Assembly (NCBI GenBank): GCA_965112155.1
Contig: OZ218109.1
DNA: 64,000 bases
Strand: one strand, 5' to 3'
DNA from: Podarcis liolepis
Lineage: Eukaryota
The notes below the pieces were generated by a model, which saw only the letters and a program-made list of their open reading frames with translations, did no database searches and had not been told where the DNA came from. Positions within the stretch are counted from its first letter, which is position 1. Each line of letters starts with the position of its first letter. This document shows, one piece after another, positions 6,303 to 58,202 of the stretch. The position numbers and the translations under genes were made by a program.

Positions 6303-7912
6303 TCATAGAAAGCTTTCACAGAATCCTAAAATTGTGGATTGGAAGGGACTCAGAGGACCATCCAGTCCAACCCCCTGCAATGCAGAAATCTCAACTAAAG
6401 CATCAGTGACAGATGGCCATCCAACCTCTGCTTTAAAACCTGCAATGAAAGAAAGTCCACCACCTTCTGAAGGAGTCTGTTCCAATGTCAAACTATTGCG
6501 TGGACAGGCGGAGTCCCCAGATCCTGCATGGTTCCCCCGTCATGTGGAATAACGACTCAAGACAACGTGCTATGGGATTAAATTGGCCACAACTTTATTA
6601 AATTTCAAATGTGGGTAGACCTTGGCTCAGGCATTGGGCATCCTCCCTCCCCGGTCCCCAGCCGGGGACCTAGGGAGCATCAGGGTTATCCAGTGTGTGG
6701 GGGGGGGGGGATGGGCCGGCTCTGGAGAACATATGTTCAAGCAGAGATAGCCGCCCCCGTAACGCTGCCGCCGCAGGAGAGAGCAATGACGACCTTTCGG
6801 TGTACGACCAAAGCCTCCCTTCAGAAAACCCCTTTAACGGGGAACCCTGGTATCGCCGCCGCAAGAGGAAGATGGACGAAAGGATTCCGCCCAAGGCCTG
6901 ATACCACCAAAGTTGTGACGTTTTGCTACGGGAAAGGCGAAACCTGCCAATGCAGGGAAATTCCTTTCCGGCCCTTTAACAGCGACCTTAACGTAGCAGC
7001 GCCCGCATACCTGTGAAGAAAAGTTAACCTGCAAAACCTGTGAAGAAAAGTTAACCTGCAAAATAAGGCATTAACTGAGGGTGGGTAGGGTGGAAGAAGC
7101 TCTGGAGCCAAGTGAGGATTCCTAGGTAAGATCCTCCCTCTATTGTGTGGGCAGGTAATCCCTCCCCTACCTGGCCTGGTCTCCTTGGCAACGCTTCCCC
7201 CAGGTGGGATTGGACAACTGACTGAGGTAGGCGGAGACCTCCAGGTATCCCACCTGAGGGAAGGCAAAGCCAAGCCTATGCTGTTGGAGCCACTCCAGAT
7301 CTAGGGGCTGCACGCGTCCACGCAAAGGGCGCCCCCCGTTTTAAGCGGGGAGCGGTCATTCTTACTGTCATGAAGTTGTTCCTGACGTTTAGTCAGAATC
7401 TCCTTTCTTATAACTTGAATCCATTGGTTCAAGTGCTACCCTCCAGAGCAGGAGAAAACAAGCTTGCTCCTTCTTCCATGTGGCAGCCCTTTAGATATTT
7501 GGCAATGGCCATCATATTTCCTCTCAGTAACCTCTTTTCCAGGCTAAACATATGCAGATCCCTCAACTGTTCTTCATAAGTCTTGGTTTCCGGACCCTTG
7601 ATCATCTCGCATGCCCTCCTCTGCACATATCTCAGCCTGTTGATATCTTTCTTAAATTGTGGTGCCCAGAACTGTTCTGTGGCACCCAGGTGTAGTCTGA
7701 CCAAGGCAGAATAGAGTGGTACTATTACTTCCCTTGATCTGGACGCGATACTTATGTTGATGCAGCCTAGAATAGCATTAGTTGTTTTTTGTTTTGTTTT
7801 TTGCTGCTACTGCTGCTGCATCACACTGTTGACCCATGTTAAGCTTGTGGTCTATTAAGACCCTAGGTCCTTTTCACATGTGCTACAGGTCTCCACCATC
7901 CTATAATTGTGC
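6303..7912 (-). mobile_element. CR1 LINE 3' fragment (RT C-terminus and 3' UTR), split by element A at 6496-7357
   Basis: ORF 7429-7704 reads QFWAPQFKKDINRLRYVQRRACEMIKGPETKTYEEQLRDLHMFSLEKRLLRG, typical of the CR1 ORF2 end. 6303-6495 is the CR1 3' tail, and the two halves join as ...TGTCAAACTATTCTTACTGTC. Confidence 0.9.
6496..7357 (-). mobile_element. Element A: unclassified non-coding structured mobile element, CpG-rich and probably young
   Basis: Inserted cleanly into a CR1. Inverted repeats TTGCGTGGAC (6496-6505) and GTCCACGCAA (7316-7325) are followed by the hairpin CGCCCCCCG-TTTTAAG-CGGGGAGCG. AATAAAGTTGTGGCC lies on the minus strand at 6585-6599. It shares motifs with 45229-46024 and 50908-51719. 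Confidence 0.85.
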
Positions 7913-8424
7913 ATAACAGTTCATTTGCTGTTGATTAATTCAGTGTCAATTTCTCTTGAAATTTCAAGTCAATTATGTTTTTATTATTTTCAATAAATCA
8001 AGTGCACATAAGCTTTATTTCCAGTTATCTTCAGTAGACCAGAGACACTCATCCATCATAGCACATATTTCTCAACCTCTGACTACTTACCTTGTGGTGA
8101 TTTGGGGGGGAAAGTATCCCTTCTTTCTTTTTGCAATCTCAGGAACATTCATTGTCCTCACTACCTTTCATAGGCAATATAGAGGAGAACCAATTAACTA
8201 CAAAGTGGCCAGATTGCAGTATGTTCCAGATTACTCTTTTATTGAGTTAGCTGTTCCAGACAATTCCAGCTACCACACTTTATTAAGCCAAGCCCTTTTT
8301 GCAAAGGAGGGTTGGACTTCCAATGAAGAGCAGCTTTTACATTAGCAGCATAAATGTGGGCAACCACAAAGATTAACTACATGGAGTATATACATGGCTC
8401 TACTTACTCTTCTTGAATCTGCCT

Positions 8425-15975: not shown

Positions 15976-16104
15976 TTTCCAGGCTTGGCATGATCTCTCC
16001 CCCCTCCCCAGTCAGTTCCAACTCCTACACTTTCCTTTCCACACTGCTTAAGAAGATGCCTTTGGGGTGTTTCCAATTCTCATATGAACAAGCTGTTCAC
16101 ATTT

Positions 16105-16700
16105 GGGTACCTGGCAGGATGGAAAGAACTGAAAGGGGTTCAGAAGAGGGCAGCAAAGATGGCTGGGGAGGGGGGAAGAAGTCTTATGAGGAAAGGCAGA
16201 AGGAACTCAATATGTTTCTCCTGAAGAGGACGAGGTAGGGCATGGCAGCACTCTTCAAATACAGTGGTACCTTGGGTTAAGTACTTAATTCATTCTGGAG
16301 GTCCGTTCTTAACCTGAAACTGTTCTTCACCTGAAGCACCACTTTAGCTAATGGGGCCTCCTGCTGCTGCCGCACCAAGCACGATTTCTGTTTTCATCCT
16401 GAAGCAAAGTTCTTAACCCAAGGAACTATTTCTGGGTTAGCGGAGTCTGTAACCTGAAGCATATGTAACCCGAGGTACCACTTTACCTGAAGGACCCATC
16501 ACATAAAAAAGGACAAAGACTTGTATTCTCTGCTGCCATGGACTGGATCTGATAGCCTTAAATTTTGTTGAACTTTAGGAGAAACTTCTTAATGGTAAGA
16601 GCTGTTTGACAATAGAACCAATTGCCTAAGAAGGTGGGCTTTCCCTCATTGGAAGTCTTTGAGAATGTACTAGTTCTAGATTGCCTACATAAAACACAGG
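16105..16700 (+). mobile_element. Old CR1 LINE 3' fragment split by a MITE at 16262-16483
   Basis: Contains GTTCAGAAGAGGGCAGCAAAGATG (VQKRAAKM), TCTTATGAGGAAAGG (SYEER), CTCTTCAAATA|CCTGAAGG and AGGAGAAACTTCTTAATGGTAAGAGCTGTT. Confidence 0.75.
16262..16483. mobile_element. Tc1/mariner (pogo/Tigger-like) MITE, opposite orientation to the copies at 13240 and 13729
   Basis: TIR CAGTGGTACCTTGGGTTA...TAACCCGAGGTACCACTT with a TA TSD. Confidence 0.9.
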
Positions 16701-30902: not shown

Positions 30903-31038
30903 CAGTGTTCCCCAACCTTGGGCCTCCAGCTGTTTTTGGACTACAACTCCCATCATCCTTGACCACTGGTCTTGCTAGCGAGGGATGATGGGAGTTGTAG
31001 TCCAAAAACAGCTGGAGGCCCAAGGTTGGGGAACACTG
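30903..31038. mobile_element. Young hAT-type palindromic MITE
   Basis: Long, near-perfect TIRs starting CAGTGTTCCCCAACCTTGGG; perfect 8-bp TSD CTTTAGGA at 30895-30902 and 31039-31046. Confidence 0.95.
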
Positions 31039-35875: not shown

Positions 35876-36043
35876 GAGGGCCATAGCTCAATGATAGAGA
35901 ATCTGCCTCGCACACAGAAGTTCCCAGGTTCAATTCCTGGCATCTCTAGTTAGGGCTGAGAGACCCCATTTGAAATCCTGCCAATCAGTGCAGACAATAC
36001 TGAGCTAGATGGACCAATGGCCTGATGCGGTATAAGGAAGCTT
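35876..36043 (+). mobile_element. Squam2-like tRNA-derived SINE; its tail resumes at 36646
   Basis: TAGCTCAATGAT A-box, GGTTCAATTCC B-box and CR1-like tail GAGCTAGATGGACCAATGG...TATAAGGAAGCTT|CCTATATTC. Confidence 0.8.
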
Positions 36044-42800: not shown

Positions 42801-45228
42801 GATGAGACCAGAAGCCCATCTTATCCAGCATCCTGTTTTGTACAGTGGCCCATCACATTCAAGGAGGCCTACCAGCTGGGTGTCAGCAGTTCCTTTGGCT
42901 CATCTAGTCCAACATTCTGTTCTCACAGTGACCAACCAGAGACCTGTGAGAAGTCCACAAGCAAGACCTGACTGCAACACCACTCAATCTCCCCTCCAGC
43001 AGTTTTCAGTGGCTGTTATTCACAAACACACTGTCTCCAAGAGTGGAGGTATCAGGGTTAGTAGCCATCAAGAAATAGCACTCCAACTCCAAACCAAAAC
43101 ATTGTAATCTGACGTGAGCTTTACTCTACAGAGCAAGGAAAATTGAAATCAAACTTCCTGCACCTCCAGTTGAACCTTGAGCCCAAGCTGTTTGCAGCCT
43201 AATTATCCTAAAGGAATATTTCCTTTTAATTTTAAGCAGCTGCTCCTCTCCTATTTCGTCCCCAATGAAACATGAGGGTTTTATGCAAAACCTCCACTGA
43301 GCATGTGCAAGTGTGCGTTTTCTTTCTCCGCATATGAATTTCTTCTAATATCTGTAACTGGCCACAGTGGAATCCCTGCACATCTTTCTCCCGGACCTGT
43401 TTAATGAAATCTGCAGTTCCCCACTCAGATTCATTTTGGATACCCCCTATGTTTCTTCTTTAAATACCAGTGATCTAGACACTAAATGTGCAGAAGTGGT
43501 CTCCCATAACGTTAATGCATATCTCTATTCCTTTAGTTATCACATGGGTGGCCTCATGAGTGGCATAATATGTTGGAGCACTCTCTCTCTCCTGCTGTCC
43601 TGATGAAAGTATTCGGCTCACAATGAAAATTGAGGCAATAGGCAACATTACAGCATGCTTGGCTCAGCTTGTTGGCAGTGACGATGAAGCATTCATTGCC
43701 ACTATGGAACAGATGAAATCAAAAGCACAGGCTATTAAACTATACACTACCATTGGGGGCTGTAAGTCTTTTCTGCAAATGACACCTTTGTTATTTTCCT
43801 AAACGAGTTCATCAACGTATAGCATTCGAATGCACTAAATCACAGAGGCATTTAGGAATGGATAAACAGATGGACAAATAACAGATTTATTTTATTTTCT
43901 TCCCCTTCTCCTTTAAATATCTTCCTTCCTCCTACTCCACAAAAGGGACATGATCCAATTCAAGAGAATCATAGTATTTCTTGTTGGTGATACTTCTCAT
44001 CATATATATATTTCTGTTTAGTTTTGTTTTGTGTTTTGCATCGCCCCAATTTATCACTATTGTTTGACAATAGTATGTTCCAGCTAATCATTCTGTCGCT
44101 TGTCTTTCACTTTCACCCATCCATCTGCAGATTTTAAAAGTACACATTTCCTCTGGTATTCTTCCCTCTGATTTTTAAAATACTGTTTTTCTACAAATTT
44201 CCTGACAATGCTTAAAAAAAAGAACATCTGAATTTCTGTCACTCAGCATGATCTTTATTTTCTTGCTCTCCACTATTATTTGTTTCAAATGACTAACATT
44301 TAGGGTGAAATACTGAACTAATCACTATCCAAAAGCTGTAATAAACTCTCCAGTGGAAGTGAGTCCAGTTGTTGCCTGGTCAGCGGAAGGGTGCCTTTCT
44401 TACATCTGCTGCAGTTAGCCTTAAAACGGCAGCTTGCCATTTGCAGAACATCCTCTGTAGGTATTTTTTGCATTGCTCTTTGTTAATCAAGCCCAGTTCC
44501 ATTGCTGTAGCTTACCAAAGCTGCTGACCTGTTCTTTTCCCCCATAGTTAATTTTCCAGCATCAGTTACACCAATAAATCTTAACTAATGTACATTTAAT
44601 AGAATATATTGCATGAAAGATGGGGAAGGAAAGAAGGCACTTTAGGGGATTCTTGGTGTAATTAAAGGCCTTTTAAAGAATTAATTGAGGAGCTAATTTA
44701 GGGAGGAATGTTCAGATGAAAAGGGTCTTGAATCCGTAATTTTGGATGCAGCATTATGCCTGAATTATGGTGGTATTAGCAGTGAACAGGGCACAGCACT
44801 GACTTTGCTAATCTCCCACCTAGTGTTTATTCCTGTACTTAAATCACCCTAGTGATGAGAATCAATGCACAAGCACCAAATGTAAGCCAGTAGTGTGTTT
44901 TAGCCATTGTGTGATACTTCTGCAAGTGACCAGAAGCCATTACGCAATATCTCATGTGTATATAATGGAGAGATAGCCTTAGGCTGTTCATCAGACAGAG
45001 GAGCTGATCGTCATTCTATACTTGCCCCTTTTGGAAAAGCAAGCAACCAACAGCATGGCTAGACATGCAGGCATCTCCCATAGAGGGCTGAGACAGCAGA
45101 GAAGTACACAGCCTCCAAACAATCAAAGACAAAGCATCATGAAATAAATCAAGACAAAAAAGTGTTTTGCTGCAAGTGTGTGTTTCCATGCAGGAGCTAT
45201 ACAGTAGGAGATCACACAGCCTGTAAGA

Positions 45229-46024
45229 AAGCGTGTCCTCCCTAAAAAAGGGCATGTGTTGTGGTGAGACCTGGAGACTGACCTCCTGATTGTGGGTGGG
45301 TATATTGGACAGCCACAACACCCGACTGGTAGGTCCCTTGTTGCTGGGTTTAATCTGGCCAATGGGGAGCTGTTTAAATGGACTGAGGGACCTATATATA
45401 CCTATGCATGTGACCCAGAGCTTCCTCTTTTGGCTTGTGCATCGGAACACCCGCCCACCTCTCCCTATATTTAGGGCTTGTTGCGCTTGACCTTGCTATG
45501 CCGTCATGTGTCATCTGTCGTTGGGACAGGGGCACAGCAGGAATTTTCCCCACTTGGCTGATTGGTTGTTGCCATTTGGGTTTCGCCTGCTGCGTAGCAA
45601 ATCGTCACAACTTGTAAGGTTGTGGATAGGCACTGGTTCAGGTGATAGGGATGGGAGAACGGTCTCACCATCCCTATGTGAAGGGTATTCCGTTAAAGGA
45701 ATCCAGGGACTCAACTTGGTTTGGTCAACCCTTGAGAGGGGGTTGTGCCCGTGCCTGAGTCCAGGAGAGCATCTGGGGAGCGTACATAGTCCATTCCTGG
45801 GCTTTCCACCTACCTCAGGTGTTCACCCTTGGCTGACCTATGATAGAGCTCTGGGTCAGCACTACCTGCAAGGGTGCAGGGAGCTAGTCGAACCAGAGCC
45901 TATGCAACCACTCACTTTCTGTAATCAATAAAGTTGAGGCCTAAATTCTGCCAAAAACCAAAACTAAAATTTGAGTCAAATGTGTTTTTATTTAGGGGGG
46001 AAGTCTGTGGGTCTGAACACACAA
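45229..46024 (+). mobile_element. Element B: unclassified non-coding structured mobile element (A/B/C family)
   Basis: 5' hairpin GCGTGTCCT...AGGGCATGT, imperfect inverted repeats TTGTGGTGAGACC / GGTCTGAACACACAA and AATAAAGTTGAGGCC at 45927-45941. The block 45425-45640 aligns with 51098-51310. Confidence 0.8.
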
Positions 46025-47659
46025 ATAAATGCCTTTTGAAAGGGGAAATCATTGCAAGGGGAGTTGTGTTGCTGTCCCTGATTATGTCACAAACAATATC
46101 CAATCAGTGCTTTTGCCATTCAGTCTACCGGATTCCATTCAGCATTCACAAGAGCAACAAATGTGATGCAGTGGACTTACAGGGTACTTTATGCAATATG
46201 AACAAAGTACCGAGTTTTGGATATTCAAAAAATGTGATGCCCAACCCTCAACAAAAAGGCAGGATGTGTGGAGTGCATGCGACATACGTCATGCGGATGT
46301 GCAGGTTGGGAGGTTGTTGTGTCTGGGAGTGACCTCTGCACAGCTCCCTGGGTGGTCCAACCGGGCTCAGTGTTAGGAGGGGGCTGTGGAGTGACACAGC
46401 GATGTCCCAACTCTTGCACCACTTCCTACAGCACTACAAAGAGCCATGTTTGGGCATGCAGTCTGGGAGACACACAGCACAGTGGAGTAAATAATCCATT
46501 TCCCAAAGTTATTTGTCTTGACTCTTCTTTGGCATATTACTAGCTTCTGTATCAGGTGCTCTGGAACTTTGGGAGCTGAGACTTTCATAAGGGATAAGTC
46601 CTGTAAGTACAAACATGACAACATTGGGATGACAGCGAGTACCCTTGCAAACAGCATCATAATGATCAACCACAGAGACTTAAGTGTGAAGATCTCGGTT
46701 GCTATGAATAGATGTTCTTCTGCATTTCTCCACAAATTATGAAGAGTTGAAATGGCAACTTCTCAGCAGTACATTCACCCTGGAAGTAGAATATTTATAA
46801 GGCAGCTGTGCTCTCTAGCTAACCAAGAACATTATGTCTGGAAACATCTGGTTCAGAGCTACACTTGAGGGATGACCCGGGAAGATTTCATTGTAGACAA
46901 ACTTTTATATTTGCAATAAAATATATTTGAACAGCATAGCCCAAACACTGATAATCTATGATCTCACTCCACTGTTTTTGCCACCGATCAAGGGGTTTAG
47001 CTGGGTAGCTAATTATGAGTTTCTTGCAAAGTCTAATCCATCCTCAGAACAGATGCAATTCATGTGCATTGCTTATCTACTTTCCTGATTGCAACATTTA
47101 ATATTGCACAGCAACATGTAATAATTGGTAGCTGCCAGTGGATGCATACTCCATGATGTTCATTAGATTACAGCATGTATTGCAGGCAATGTGTTAGGAT
47201 GGTTGAACAATGGATGAAAACCACCATTTCCAGAAAGGTATGTTAAAGTAAAGTCTTCTGTAATCCATAGTGCATTGTAAAATTGCATGACAAAAACACA
47301 GATGAAAAGTGAAATAACAGAATTTGACATATCCTGGCAGAGCCACTGGTTCCTGATGACACACTCTTTCTTCCATTTAGATGCTGACAGTATCTCAACA
47401 GAAATCTATTTGACAATAATGCCCTACAGAAAACTTAACTATGTAAACACTATAAAAAAATGCAACTATCCAAAACCGTCTGAGATGTCTTAACCTGCAT
47501 TTATCTGGCTCACAGCAAAAAATAAATAAAAAATGGATAAACCACCCTCCGTCTATGGGCTTTGACTAAGATTTATCTGAAATCATTGGCAACCACAGTG
47601 AAAGCCCACATGATATTTTGTATCACTTTGGTTGACTTCATTATTCATACATACGGTAC

Positions 47660-47852: not shown

Positions 47853-50282
47853 CAACAATATTGTGCTAACACACAATTTGTATGATTTTTGTATGGCTTG
47901 GGAAATACAAGTTTTTCTTTTTCCAAATATGGAGTACCAACCATTGTATGCTTCTCCTTTCAAGCTGCCCTGGGTGCAACCTGAAACCTGCAAAGCATCT
48001 AACAGGCCCTGTACAATCTCCTCTGCCATTTTATCAGAAAACTTCGATAAAATGCAAATTCCAACCATAGCTTCAGCATTAGCCAATCCCCACTCCCTGT
48101 TGTTTTTTTTAACCATCTATCCTAATGAAGAGTTCTGAATTCTTGCACTCTATTTTGTCAATATTGTGGTTGGCATAAAAAAAGTATTGCCCTAATGTGA
48201 ATTTTGGGGAGGGGTCCCCCCCTTAATGGGCTATCATGACTACCTTTGCTTGTTGCTTCTTTTTTTAGTTAAAGGTCAGTGTCTCCTTTCCTAGAGATTT
48301 AAAGTACCTGCTACACTTCACTGAATGTTACTGAATGGAGTAGGTAAAAATAGAAAAAAAGAATTTTAGCATGCATGATTTAAGAAAGGGACCATTTAGG
48401 TATCCTGTTACTTCCAAGATGTTTGGCAATTAGCAATTCAATTCAGGATTTTGCAAAATTATTTTTATCTTGATATGCTCAAGGAGTAGGACTGTATCAG
48501 AATGCATTCATTGCAACAGCTGGACATGTTATCAACACTCCCCCCTTGTTATTCTGAATGAAAAATTGGAAAGAGTGCTTCCATTTATATCCCATAAGTA
48601 ATGTTGCATATAGAAAGACACACACGCGCACACACCCCGCAATCTTTGCAACTCACCCACATCTAAGCTAAAAATACTCTGAAGTCATGCTGCTCTTTTA
48701 AATCATACTGCGAAACTGGATGACCTCCTATGGAGATTTCTCTTTAACACAAGTAATTATAGTCTTCCAGCTGCCCTTTGACTCTCAGTGGACCAAGGGC
48801 AGTCCTTCTTGGAAATGAGCTTAATTAATTCTCCGCAATTGGTATATATTCTTTCAGCCATGAGGTGGCAGCTTGTTTCCACAGGAATTTACTCCTGAGC
48901 TTTGAGTTGATCTGCTTCTATTGCCCAGGTTGCTCCTGTTTCAGAAGCCTGAGCCCACTGAGCCACACGGGCGAAATGTGGCAAGAGGCAGGAGCTGCAA
49001 CAAAATGTTGTAGTGGACAATATGTTCCTGTTTGGGGTTCCAGCCATTCCATTCCATTCCCCTCTCCACGTTTTTCCATTTCCCCCATCACAACAGCCAA
49101 TCAGCATTCCATGCGCACTGAGCTTGCTCAGTACCCATGAGAATGTTTGGAGAGATGGCTGTATCCCCATAGCCCAAGGATACATCCCCCTTGTATGTGG
49201 GTGATGCTCTTTTGGCTCTCCACATGGATCAGCCATAAGAGAACTGAGGGGGGAAAACAGCATATATGAGTTTGACAACATGTGAGCTTTCTTATTGGAA
49301 ACTTACACAAATGTCTAACAATATAAGAAGTGAAGTTTACAGAGGCATGGTCCGTATTGCTGAATATCCTGTATACAGGACGACCCGATACAGTTATATG
49401 GGGTGGGGGAATGGAAGCAGCTAATAACACTCTCACCAGCAGGAAATGAGAACCTTCATGGATGAGGAGCAAGCAGATGGCCCAGTTGAAGGAAGCCCTC
49501 AATGATGAAGCAGTTCATACACAATCACAGCAGCATAGTTTCAAGCATCACACAGGCTTTGCTTTGTGTAGGGAAACCTGTCAATGTCAATTTGTCGTTT
49601 CTCCATGGTTAACGTCTCCACATTTCAGCATCACTTCAATAATGTCTTTTCAAAGTCTGCAAGGAAATTTGTGAGCATTTTGGTACAAAAATGCGTAGCT
49701 TTGTATGCAACCTTGCCCAATATGCACATTTTTGCAAAGCCATTTTCCTGAATGTAAAGCATGTTGGTATGTTATCTTCCCTAACATATGCATTTGTAGA
49801 CACAGTTTATCTCACAATATGCATCTTTGTACGTATTACTTGGTACAGATTAATTGCCGAATCTAAAGAAGAGCACATTTCAAAGGATGTCTGTGTTTCG
49901 GTTCATGTATTGATTCAGGAAGTGCAAATTAACCTTTAATGTGAACTGCATCAAATTTTCCTCCCGTCCCTGGCTGTGTTGCTGGTGTTTTGCATTAAGG
50001 ATCAACAACATGGTTTAGGTCAACAGTAAGCTGGGAAGGAGAGACCCTGTTGCAGCAGACCAATAAAGATCAACAGCTTGCCTTGCTTTCTTGGTAGCCT
50101 CCATTTGTATCTCTAACAGATAGTGGACCTCAAGGGATCCTAAGGACTCAGCTACATTGGCAGCCAAAAAGCCCTTTATATGTGTTGTTTATGCATTCTA
50201 ACACTGTGGCACCAGATGGCACTGTGGAGTTCTGTTTTTTGCTAACCCGATTTCTCATACAAGGTTTGTGATGCATTTAACT

Positions 50283-50418
50283 CGGGCTTCCTCAAACTCG
50301 GCCCTCCAGATGTTTTGAGACTACAGTTCCCATCATCCCTGACCACTGGTCCTGCTAGCTAGGGATCATGGGAGTTGTAGGCCAAAAACATCTGGAGGGC
50401 AGAGTTTGAGGAAGCCTG
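50283..50418. mobile_element. hAT-type palindromic MITE
   Basis: TIR CGGGCTTCCTCAAACTC/GAGTTTGAGGAAGCCTG with an ACTACAGTTCCCATCATCC core; the TSD is degenerate. Confidence 0.85.
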
Positions 50419-50711
50419 GTTTAAACAAAACACTTCTTTGATTTGTCTAGATCCAGCCTACGTCCACCAGCTTCGACTGAACACAGTGTAAATTCCCCTT
50501 TTAGAAATACACATGAAGGTTGGAAGAGGAGTGGGTGGCATTCACCAGAAATGGGGAGGGGGACTAAGACCTGCGAGACCAGGGTTCAAATTTCCACTCA
50601 ACCACAAAGTTTACTGGGTGACCTTGGGCCAGTCACTGCTTCTCAGCCTAGCCTACCTCACAGAGTTGTTGTGGGGAATAAATGGTGGAGAGAGTGGACA
50701 CCAGGTAAAGC

Positions 50712-50893
50712 ATAGATTGGTGCCCAAATTGTTAGACCTGGGACTTCCACCATGTTTGTGCAGTGTTGAGCATGTAGTTTTTATGTAGTTTTATGTAGTT
50801 TTGTGGTAGTTTTATGTAGTTTTTATGTAGTTTTATGTAGTTTTTCAATTTCATTGTTCCACAAGGGACAATGACAATAAAGATATCGTATAT
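50712..50893 (+). mobile_element. Internally deleted Rex1/Babar LINE fragment with an (ATGTAGTTTT)n minisatellite
   Basis: The peptide LVPKLLDLGLPPCLC (Rex1-type RT motif KL..LGL...LC) is joined to the Rex1-like 3' end CAATTTCATTG...ACAATGACAATAAAG. Tandem repeat at 50771-50845. Confidence 0.6.
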
Positions 50894-50907
50894 CGGGGGG
50901 GGGGGGG

Positions 50908-51719
50908 AGCGTGTTCTCTTTCATAGAGAGCACGTGTTGCGGTGGGGTCTGACAGGCCACCCCACTGTTGCTGGGCGGGTTAGTATGGATGACCATCCAC
51001 AGTGATTGGACGGTTGGGTTACTGGGCAAATTTTGGTGTTGCCATTTAGGGGGAGGGACCAAAGGTTATAAAATCAAGTCACGCAGCACTGACTGGGCTC
51101 TTTTGCTGCGTGCATCGGATCACCCACCCACCCTCCCTCATCTAGGGCTATTGCGTTGACCTTGCTATGCCTGTCATGGGGTCGTCTGCTTTTGGGGCAG
51201 GGGCCTGGTAGGAATTTTGTCCATATGGCTGATTGGCTGGTGCTATTTGGTTTTTGCCTACTGCGTAGCAAATCGCCACAACTTGTAAGGTTGCGGTTAG
51301 GCATTGGTTAAAAAATTGGTTGGTGGAGGGGTAAGGACTGGCGGTGCCTGCCCCTCCAATGCTGCTGCAGCAAGGGAATTCCATTAAAGGAATCCAGGGG
51401 CTTGCCATTCTTTCGTCCATACCCCTGAATGGGGCTTAGGGCCACGCAAGCCCCTGGGAGCATGAAGGGGGGGGTGAGGGTCTGGTGCCGGCTCCATGCT
51501 CTCCCCAATATTGTTTTCCCTTACTGGCTTTCGCTGGAATCCGGAAGTCAGTTCTGTCCCTGGGCGTGGGGACAGATAGTTGGAACCAATGCCTAAACAA
51601 TCACTCACATTTATGTATTTTAATAAAGTTGTGGCCAAAGTTATGCCAAAAACCTTAAACAAAAATTATATGTGAATTGTGAATTATTTAGGGGTGGCTT
51701 GGGGGACCTCAACACGCAA
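50908..51719 (+). mobile_element. Element C: unclassified non-coding structured mobile element (A/B/C family)
   Basis: 5' hairpin GCGTGTTCTCT-TTCAT-AGAGAGCACGT, imperfect inverted repeats TTGCGGTGGGGTC / GACCTCAACACGCAA, TATAAAA at 51067-51073 and AATAAAGTTGTGGCC at 51622-51636. Confidence 0.85.
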
Positions 51720-53557
51720 ACCACCTTGAGTTCTTTGAAGAAAAAGAAGGGATATAGAAGCAATGAATAAATAAAAATACTGATCAGGATTTTAGTAGTA
51801 CATTTAGCCTAGGAAACTTCACTTAAAAACAAACAAACCAGGAATTTTTATGATGGCTAAATAGCAGCTAAGCTTCCTGGAGTGGGTACTTGCCTGATCC
51901 TCAGTTAGGTGGTGGCTGTAATCAGACTTCTGCTCCCATGCAGAATAATTAACGGAACAGAGAGCCAAAAAAAAAAAAAAAAAAAAGAAAAGAAAGGAAA
52001 ATGTCCCCAGCCCTATTAAATTTCCACTGAATTAGCCCCTCAGAAAGGAAGCTGTCTTGCAAAATGACTGCCTTTTACAGATTAAAAAAAGCAACTGGCT
52101 ATGTCAAGGACAGTGGAAAGGAAGCAGGGTTCAGTAACAAGAATTCCAACTCAAAAGGGGTTATCGTGTGCCAGTTCTCTGATGGAGAATTTATCCACGC
52201 AAAGGTCAGGCACTCATTAAACCTTATCTGATGCCAAAGTTATATATTATGGTTTATTGCCTCGAGTACCAATTAATAAAGAATTAAAGAAATGAAGAAA
52301 CCAGTGATTCATACCTTTTGTGTGGGGGGGGAAGCTCATGGTTCAGCATAATGCTAAAATATTAATAGTAATTTTAGTCGTGTAGTATTTTATTAGGCAC
52401 TTAACTCTGTAGGTTTTATCGAAAGATATATGGGATTCATTTTTAACAAAATGCAGAAATTTGGGGGAAGGGAGGTACATTGACTCAAAATCTAATAAGA
52501 GGAGATTCCAGAGATATTTTGAAAGGGGGGGAGCTTAAACATTACCATTGATTATTAATAAAGAATTACTTAATAATAATAATGGGCTTAAGAAGGGACC
52601 GTTACAAAGGGCTGGAAAATTCCACAATGATTTTTCCACAGTGTTCTTAGAAGGAAGCTCACAGCTCTAGGAGTCATATACACTGGTACTACAAAAAAAC
52701 TATTGTATACCACATATCTGGTGTAAGGTAATTTACTGTACAACTTTCAAACATTTCTGCTTTGCTTTCAGGTGATTTCAAGTGATAGCAAAGTCCCGTC
52801 TGTGGTGACTGATCTGTAAAAGCTCATTTCCATGGGCAAGTAATAACTTGCCATTGCAGCCACAAAGTGATAAACCTGCGTGTGTGAAAGCTCACCTTTA
52901 TAGACACTCATATTCTTCTCGGATGTTCGCTGTCAATAGCATGTGCTGCAAGCCACAACCTTACAGTCTGAACTACTGTCTGGTAAAATATATATATATT
53001 GTAGTGCTAGCAGGCACTAGATGGTTGGCTTTATTTTAGTATTTGCTAAGCTTCCCCCCTGAGTCCAGTTGGTTTGTGGCTGTGGAAGGCTCTATGGGGG
53101 AGGGGAATTGGGGGTCGAGGAGGGTCATTGGGGGGGGGAGTGAGAAATGTTCCTATTCTCATCTAATGGAATGTTAGAGGGTATGTTACCATAATGCCAC
53201 AGTTGGTGGTAGGAGAAGGTAGAAGCAACACCAGAGCAGGGAGCAGCCAATGTCTGATTTTGTCAGATAGAGAGACCAGCATTGGGAAGTCCATAAAAGT
53301 GCGTATTTCAAACGCTGGCTGTGTTCTGATTTGAATTGTTTTGGAAAATTTGAATTCTGTAGGCTCGCCTTTAAATGCAAAGTAAATTGAATTTCTCCCC
53401 CCATGGCTAGAAGTGGATCAGTAAGGGCTTCCGACAACCAATTATTTGAGAATAGCAATAACTAAAAGGCTTCCCCTCCCTTGAAATTAGGCTGCTGAAA
53501 TGACCAACATTGGAGGGGGACCAGGAGGGAGAAAATAGGAGGACTGTGAATCAGTAC

Positions 53558-57234: not shown

Positions 57235-58082
57235 GTTGTTGTTGTTCAGTCGTTTAGTCGTGTCCGACTCTTCGTGACCCCATGGACCAGAGAACGCCAG
57301 GCACTCCTGTCTTCCACTGCCTACCGCAGTTTGGTCAAACTCAGGCTGGTAGCTTCGAGAACACTGTCCAACCATCTCGTCCTCTGTCGTCCCCTTCTCC
57401 TTGTGCCCTCCATCTTTCCCAACATCAGGGTCTTTTGCAGGGAGTCTTATCTTCTCATGAGGTGGCCAAAGTATTGGAGCCTCAGCTTCAGGATCTGTCC
57501 TTCCAGTGAGCACTCAGGGCTGATTTCCTTAAGAATGGATAGGTTTGATCTTCTTGCAGTCCATGGGACTCTCAAGAGTCTCTTCCATCACCATAATTCA
57601 AAAGCATCAATTCTTCAGCGATCGGCCTTCTTTATGGTCCAGCTCTCACTTCCATACATCACTACTGGGGAAACCATGGCTTTAACTATATAGGTCTTTG
57701 TTGGCAAGGTGATGTCTCTGCTTTTTAAGATGCTGTCTAGGTTTGTCATTGCTTTTCTCCCAAGAAGCAGGGGTCTTTTAATTTCGTGACTGCTGTCACC
57801 ATCTGCAGTGATCATGGAGCCCAAGAAAGTAAAATCTCTCATTGCCTCCATTTCTTCCCCTTCTATTTGCCAGGAGGTGATGGGCCCAGTGGCCATGATC
57901 TTAGTTTTTTTGATGTTGAGCTTCAGACCATATTTTGCGCTTTCCTCTTTCACCCTCATTAAAAGGTTCTTTAATTCCTCCTCACTTTCTGCCATCAAGG
58001 TTGTGTCATCTGCATATCTGAGGTTGTTGATATTTCTTCTGGCAATCTTAATTCCGGCTTGGGATTCATCCAGCCCAGCCTT
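57235..58082 (-). mobile_element. 5'-truncated RTE-BovB LINE (RT domain to 3' end)
   Basis: ORF 57615-58094 reads AGIKIARRNINNLRYADDTTLMAESEEELKNLLMRVKEESAKYGLKLNIKKTKIM (YADD RT motif). The 3' end is GGGGTCACGAAGAGTCGGACACGACT followed by (CAA)n. Confidence 0.97.
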
Positions 58083-58202
58083 AAAAGCAGTCATTAAATA
58101 TATAAATTAGATAAAGGATATTGCTGTCAAAGTCATATCATTTAAATATTTATATTATTGTTACTAAGGGCATCAGGTCTACTTCCTCTGGAAGTGAGTA
58201 GT

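Follow-up and report, generated by a model that had tools for sequence, protein, structure and literature searches.

The long-range stem considered here, P1, lies in each of three related repeat units in the window, a stretch of 64,000 nucleotides from Podarcis liolepis (contig OZ218109.1). The window consists of non-coding vertebrate DNA with many short repeats, and it carries a CR1-like reverse transcriptase remnant whose listed relatives are bird proteins. The units, denoted A, B and C, are non-coding, ~860, ~790 and ~810 nt long respectively, and belong to one high-copy family. Unit C (50909..51717, plus strand) is preceded by GGA and followed by AAA (51718-51720), unit B (45231..46022, plus strand) has AAA on both sides, and unit A (6498..7357, minus strand) has AAT on both sides. 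Each unit holds one AATAAA, always at the same place and on the same strand, starting at 51622 in C (51622..51627), at 45927 in B and at 6599 in A. Pattern matching detected a TATA-like box at 51067..51072 in C and at 45393 in B, and no match to it in unit A. Searching the window with a profile built from A, B and C brought up no further copy. The possibility that B and C are the two ends of one element was rejected, as the identity of their interiors is only 57% and the DNA that separates them holds no Pfam domain.

Several other mobile-element traces share the window. A second CR1-like reverse transcriptase 3' remnant is found at about 16000-16660. An RVT_1 fragment at 57618-58106 (minus strand, E 2e-11), unrelated to the units, presumably has the look of an RTE/BovB-type LINE. 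A tRNA-like Rfam match at gathering score (35877-35948, 39.5 bits) may be a SINE head. Palindromic MITE-like repeats with arms of 56-65 nt are present at 30903-31038 and 50276-50425, with several more copies in the window.

Parts of unit C were found in 20 of the 24 listed sequencing runs, which come from several organisms, with a best share of 0.47 and no RNA run listed among them; the contigs of two genomic runs that aligned to C numbered 3876 and 4928. The start of unit C is fixed by 75 contigs of one run (X2) and 62 of the other (X1) that diverge into unrelated flanks just before 50908. Contig depth is highest at 51148-51307 and 51628-51659 and has another peak at 51372-51403; the promoter-like part and much of the interior are thinly covered. 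Scanning viral contigs for relatives yielded one match to a 19-nt pattern (L001), which sits inside a phage ORF and was dismissed as chance; the other pattern scans gave 0 matches in metagenome contigs, viral contigs and bacterial genomes.

A few observations concern the surroundings of the units. A short tandem repeat with poly-G, LINE-tail-like in appearance, lies directly upstream of C (50772-50907) and may have changed the left core of C, giving GGA instead of AAA. Units B and A, which are of different subfamilies, both follow GTAAGAA (45223-45229 and, on the minus strand, 7365-7359), which may reflect target preference or chance. Splice-acceptor-like sites, a YAG after a pyrimidine tract, are seen at 51145 in C, at 45474 in B and, tandemly duplicated, at 7038 and 7011 in A, 50-75 nt before a U-rich loop and where contig depth jumps ~25-fold; the chance rate of such sites is 0.6-1.5 per kb.

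Borders and class of the repeat units

Unit A interrupts the C-terminus of the CR1-like reverse transcriptase (6390..7914, minus strand), and by comparison with homologous proteins codons 7362-7360 and 6496-6494 encode adjacent residues, providing an empty site. The insertion added 863 nt (the core plus three bases), and its removal restores the CR1-like frame with a 3-nt AAT ambiguity. Solo LTRs of the integrase type have TG...CA termini and a target duplication of 4-6 bp. No such duplication exists at A, where the overlap is only 3 nt, and neither B nor C begins with TG; A allows a TG...CA reading, but its duplication does not extend beyond 3 nt. The missing 4-6 bp duplication, together with the starts of B and C, argues against an integrase-type solo LTR of the Gypsy or ERV kind.

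Every unit begins with a hairpin, after which come NTT and a stretch complementary to the end of that unit. In C the start hairpin (50909-50919/50925-50935, plus strand) is followed by GTT and by the complement of the 3' end, which runs to 50963 and pairs with 51691-51719. If end and start were joined through AAN, this junction and the internal complement would fold into a hairpin of ~45 bp, with a mismatch at the third core base in A, B and C alike; its parts are 50909-50963 with 51691-51720 in C, 45231-45289 with 45992-46025 in B and 7357-7290 with 6531-6495 in A. This hairpin could serve as a folded recombination site in a circular form of the element or where B1 borders on A2. Three-base AAN/NTT circular junctions are tabulated for DIRS1-like elements (PMC3266345), and solo AB repeats are known for Ngaro (PMC8547959) and VIPER/SIRE (PMC6681497; see also 10.1101/2021.08.05.455354, PMC3783388, PMC4157794).

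From the insertion site and the termini together, we think that the units are probably solo A-B repeats of a split-direct-repeat tyrosine-recombinase retrotransposon. None of the contigs listed for X1 and X2 contained the end-to-start joint expected from the A1-ORFs-B1-A2-B2 layout, and a gap there proves nothing. A recombinase or DIRS-type reverse transcriptase domain was found in 0 of the 46 ORFs of the window, the one reverse transcriptase match (57618-58106) being outside the units. Ngaro, DIRS and Helitron go unnamed in the available text and readable supplements of two lacertid genome papers (PMC10214862, PMC7643610). The repeat family itself has probably been catalogued already under some name.

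Alternatively, the units could be non-autonomous Helentrons (HLE2) or DIRS1-like mini-elements, the folds acting in single-stranded DNA and the AATAAA being coincidental. Read on the other strand, the units display a terminal repeat, a subterminal partner with a hairpin, and TT flanks, as described for HINE/HLE2 (PMC4067079, PMC11417382). Unit A fits a T/T insertion of the Helentron/HLE2 kind in one of four equivalent registers, and B fits too. The NTT termini, the internal AAN junction and an internal region complementary to both ends, as in DIRS1-like elements, are likewise found on the strand opposite AATAAA, imperfectly. The terminal pairing, however, extends over ~30-35 nt and is imperfect, whereas the subterminal inverted repeats that HLE2 elements share with a RepHel-coding partner measure 11-18 nt (A has a core of 10-11 nt, B and C shorter broken blocks) and DIRS1-like inverted terminal repeats measure 66-316 bp, a length absent here.

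The strand itself bears on this alternative. Folding z-scores of the units were -4.3/-5.0/-2.2 for sense and -4.8/-4.0/-1.6 for antisense, and G.U versus A.C counts of 77:52 are close to the ratio in shuffles, so these tests choose no strand, which leaves room for a DNA-level reading. Our strand assignment relies on the single AATAAA at a fixed place, on the TATA-like box upstream of it in B and C, and on the junction hairpin, which is far more stable on the AATAAA strand than on the other in B and C (-50.9 vs -28.5 and -62.8 vs -44.0), with no such excess in A. These same features speak against a Helentron or DIRS1-like origin, which we regard as decidedly improbable. The RNA runs gave 142 and 96 reads on C, mostly partial and from both strands, and among them no position at which many molecules end.

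The long-range stem P1 and the domain it encloses

The initial annotation had proposed a long-range covarying helix in all three copies, and re-reading the letters places P1 exactly there. In unit C the arms 51297..51309 and 51584..51596 (plus strand) form 13 of 13 Watson-Crick pairs; in B, 45626-45639/45890-45903 form 13 of 14, with A.A at pair 7; and in A, on the minus strand, 6901-6889/6639-6627 form 12 of 13, with C.T at pair 7, so that the break in B and A falls in the same column. P1 encloses 274 nt in C, 250 nt in B and 249 nt in A, and its 3' arm is separated from AATAAA by 25, 23 and 27 nt, respectively. Among the 13 columns compared over the three copies, 7 are invariant, 5 (1, 2, 8, 12 and 13) changed on both sides and are still paired, and 1 has lost its pairing in two copies; the five compensated columns hold Watson-Crick pairs throughout.

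Not one of 150 dinucleotide shuffles of C produced a perfect 13-mer stem spanning 150-450 nt. Stems of 13 pairs with one mismatch appeared in 21 of 150 shuffles of B and 13 of 150 of A, and each of these two stems taken alone is unremarkable against chance. Since one-mismatch stems are this common, the case for P1 depends on homology of position and on covariation. RNAalifold recovered P1 unprompted from the three-copy alignment. On that alignment 4 of the 22 counted pairs carry two-sided changes, a number that 12 of 500 shuffles reach, and 95.5% of cells are paired compared with 27-48% when the partners are slid; these figures come from n=3 sequences and a helix chosen after the fact. Folding of whole units gives P1 a predicted pairing probability of 0.74-1.0; in transcript-like segments it reaches 0.99-1.0.

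Contigs of the two genomic runs provide a view of P1 across the family. Among 40 sites listed of the 188 that vary against C, none falls within the arms; variation is seen next to the 3' arm, at 51581-51583 and 51597. The coverage bin holding the 3' arm is much shallower than that holding the 5' arm, and 20 and 36 contigs as well as 22 RNA reads diverge from C directly behind 51309, where the 5' arm ends. P1 extends outward, according to folding and alignment, by P1a (51289..51293 with 51598-51602, plus strand), in which a G.U becomes G-C with the family-majority letter at 51601. As judged from the compared sequences, P1 is a genuine structure-conserved stem of the mobile element's end-repeat.

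The initial annotation had also suggested that the helix might organise a domain, and the predictions bear this out, with P1 closing a multibranch fold that is similar in the three copies. The interior of A is 47-48% identical to the other copies, where shuffles give 46-48%, and the order of helices is kept despite the diverged letters; across the domain 38 of 105 consensus pairs show two-sided changes, an RNAalifold count that depends on the alignment. A predicted four-way junction occupies 51372..51522 (plus strand), and at it a CC-RTTAAA-GG hairpin is present in all three copies (51378-51393 in C, 45687-45702 in B and 6842-6829 in A). This conserved loop holds a self-complementary UUAA and may be a candidate dimerisation or protein-binding loop. 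A contact between the RUUAAA loop and the letters immediately preceding AATAAA was discarded, since C and A could form it but in B it is broken.

The stem could in principle be a functionless inverted repeat at the DNA level, derived from nested-insertion ends or from repair-homogenised arms. The purely Watson-Crick nature of the compensated pairs, the occurrence of one-mismatch 13-mers in 9-14% of shuffles and the comparison of just three sequences fit such an origin; against it, the interiors are homologous by position, with a shared loop and helix order, rather than three unrelated inserts, and two-sided changes recur across the domain. We consider this origin extremely improbable.

A stronger competitor holds that P1 just closes or insulates the structured domain, with its four-way junction and RUUAAA loop, for Gag binding, dimerisation or priming of reverse transcription, the closeness of AATAAA being incidental. 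Interior topology and loop letters that are kept while the stems diverge to shuffle level are consistent with a scaffold of this kind, as are the second depth peak over the junction and loop and the covariation of P1 next to an outer helix, P0, that does not covary. The primer for DIRS-type reverse transcription is moreover described as unknown (PMC7192593). The fixed spacing to AATAAA and the conservation of the P0 arms that flank or overlap it, which exceeds that of the interior, point the other way, and a binding or packaging role is hypothetical here. We judge it rather unlikely that scaffolding is all that P1 does.

The poly(A) signal, the outer helix P0 and the U-rich loop

P1 is nested inside P0, a second predicted helix that is invariant in sequence and shares the final two A's of AATAAA with its 3' arm. 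In C the 5' arm (51275..51284, plus strand) competes with a local hairpin at 51277-51295, and the 3' arm (51626..51635, plus strand) begins with those two A's and lies in the deepest-covered bin of the unit; both arms fall within the deepest-covered blocks in the contigs of the two runs, and the family-majority letter at 51276 keeps or improves the pairing. P0 was located at 45604-45613/45931-45940 in B (plus strand, one A.A mismatch) and, by folding, at 6919-6908/6597-6586 in A (minus strand). The span first annotated, ending at 51636, does reach the 3' arm of P0; P0 itself, which overlaps AATAAA, and the class of the element had gone unnamed. Over the three copies the 10 bp are paired in 29 of 30 cells, with 8 columns invariant, 1 changed on one side, 1 broken and zero changed on both sides. 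Because it lacks two-sided change, P0 could be two conserved motifs rather than a helix.

To relate P0 to P1 and to the poly(A) signal, we compared folding predictions in which one partner was blocked. With the P1 5' arm of C forced to stay unpaired, P0, otherwise at a probability of 0.82 or 0.43, dropped to 0.0, and that of the local hairpin rose to 0.98 or 0.9; truncated folds of C gave the same order, the local hairpin preceding P0. In A, P0 is independent of P1 (0.74 to 0.93, and 0.9 to 0.6, with the P1 arm held unpaired), and in B its probability is just 0.01-0.21, a local hairpin covering the hexamer instead. Blocking P0 in A exposed the last four bases of the hexamer, their unpaired probabilities rising from 0.34/0.16/0.09/0.07 to 0.77/0.83/0.72/0.74; the same block in C hardly altered exposure of the hexamer except at its last base. 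Only two hexamer bases lie inside the 10-bp P0. AAUAAA is thus partly paired in the predictions by way of P0 in A, partly so in C, and in B by way of another, local hairpin. The predictions therefore have AAUAAA partly masked in all three units, and the P1-driven switch is clear in only one of them.

We propose, at a probability of roughly 40%, that P1 anchors a poly(A)-site attenuator in the end-repeat of a likely tyrosine-recombinase retrotransposon, of which unit C would be a solo A-B copy. Following the folding predictions, the P0 5' arm would first sit in the local hairpin; formation of P1 and P1a would then free it to pair over the end of AAUAAA, and P0 placed there would presumably weaken the poly(A) site. 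Such weakness would suit the element because, going by the published layout, a split-direct-repeat RNA would have to read through the AAUAAA of the first B repeat (B1) and end at that of the second (B2). An identical fold in both B repeats cannot alone distinguish them. A role of the P1 stem in 3'-end control is plausible on these models.

A more elaborate version, and a speculative one, would be a strand-displacement RNA module, conserved in structure and of a kind not described before, in squamate split-direct-repeat retrotransposons. Here the long stem would release the arm upstream of it for masking AAUAAA, with the U-rich loop and the four-way junction alongside. The 45-bp hairpin, with its conserved mismatch next to the AA crossover core, would form only where a B end meets an A start; it would mark the read-through copy and, like integron attC and CTX-phage attP, present a recombination site folded from a single strand.

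The initial annotation had linked the helix to an ENE, in that it would shorten the distance from a U-rich loop to the poly(A) tail. The shortening itself was reproduced: counting steps along the predicted structure, a point ~20 nt beyond the hexamer lies 363-391 steps from the U-loop without the helix and 90-93 steps with P1, and P0 brings this down to 31-32. In the corresponding explanation, P1 (with P0) would place the U-rich internal loop beside the new poly(A) tail, where an ENE-type triple helix would protect the RNA. The candidate hairpin (51208..51261 in C, plus strand) has its U-rich internal loop flanked by G-C stems in all three copies, with a lower stem that covaries, and it resembles the ENE that aids the plant LTR element Evade (PMC12501189) in being a G-C-flanked U-rich internal loop upstream of a retroelement poly(A) signal. 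Unlike that ENE, the lizard loop has very short U-tracts, 3-4 U on the 5' strand and 3 U on the 3' strand (5 in C), the latter reading UUUCG in B and A. Rfam returned no match at gathering score in any unit and four sub-threshold matches in C. The hairpin is poorly populated in C (0.05-0.23), no RNA 3' end marks where a tail would begin, and a triplex here is purely hypothetical. The purpose given to the helix by the initial annotation was accordingly not upheld, and we hold tail protection to be improbable.

Comparison with known systems

A full-text search of a largely open-access body of literature found no paper on the RNA structure of Ngaro repeats, in connection with polyadenylation or a hairpin, or on the present motifs. 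Read-through of the first B repeat, priming of reverse transcription and presentation of the junction to the recombinase are largely untested for split-direct-repeat retrotransposons; one experimental study concerns DIRS-1 (PMC7192593). The present family, with many copies in a vertebrate and a fold that covaries around the poly(A) signal, opens the 3'-end question to alignment and reporter assay. Were P1 only part of some generic structured region of the repeat, it would be a tidy if ordinary mobile-element feature.

As mobile elements, the units resemble the solo AB repeats of Cafeteria Ngaro (PMC8547959), the SIRE of VIPER (PMC6681497) and Xenopus DIRS-53_XT (10.1101/2021.08.05.455354) in being non-coding, dispersed, high-copy and sharply bordered, without an integrase-type target duplication. 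The lizard units, at ~800-860 nt, are twice as long as the 388 nt of DIRS-53_XT A+B; in contrast to these systems, the parent A1-ORFs-B1A2B2 element was not seen among the lizard data. The solo AB descriptions, in the portions available, do not include a conserved RNA fold or a junction hairpin. With Helentron/HLE2 elements (PMC4067079, PMC11417382) the units share asymmetric terminal repeats, a terminal hairpin, TT/AA flanks and lack of target modification, but their terminal pairing is longer, imperfect and in register with the end-start junction, and they have a conserved poly(A) motif and a covarying interior.

As a 3'-end structure, the domain enclosed by P1 recalls the HTLV-1 Rex-response element (PMC2645353, PMC3694450), a folded terminal-repeat insert of 250-280 nt with a long-range stem near the 3'-processing signals. 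The HTLV-1 fold, however, lies between AAUAAA and the cleavage site, whereas in the lizard units AATAAA is 3' of the fold, 23-27 nt beyond P1. Bridging of the HTLV-1 type was rejected on this ground, as P1 is not needed to join signal and cleavage site when AATAAA is 3' of it. HIV-1 deals with a comparable problem by masking AAUAAA with a finely balanced hairpin, together with upstream enhancers (PMC2645353). The lizard units are similar to the HIV-1 polyA hairpin in that AAUAAA lies in a terminal repeat, some of its bases being paired, by prediction, in a structure of marginal stability; they differ in that the predicted partner lies 310-340 nt upstream, across a large domain, and that only 2-3 hexamer bases would pair. 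By this analogy we tentatively liken the proposed attenuator more to the masking of HIV-1 than to the bridging of HTLV-1.
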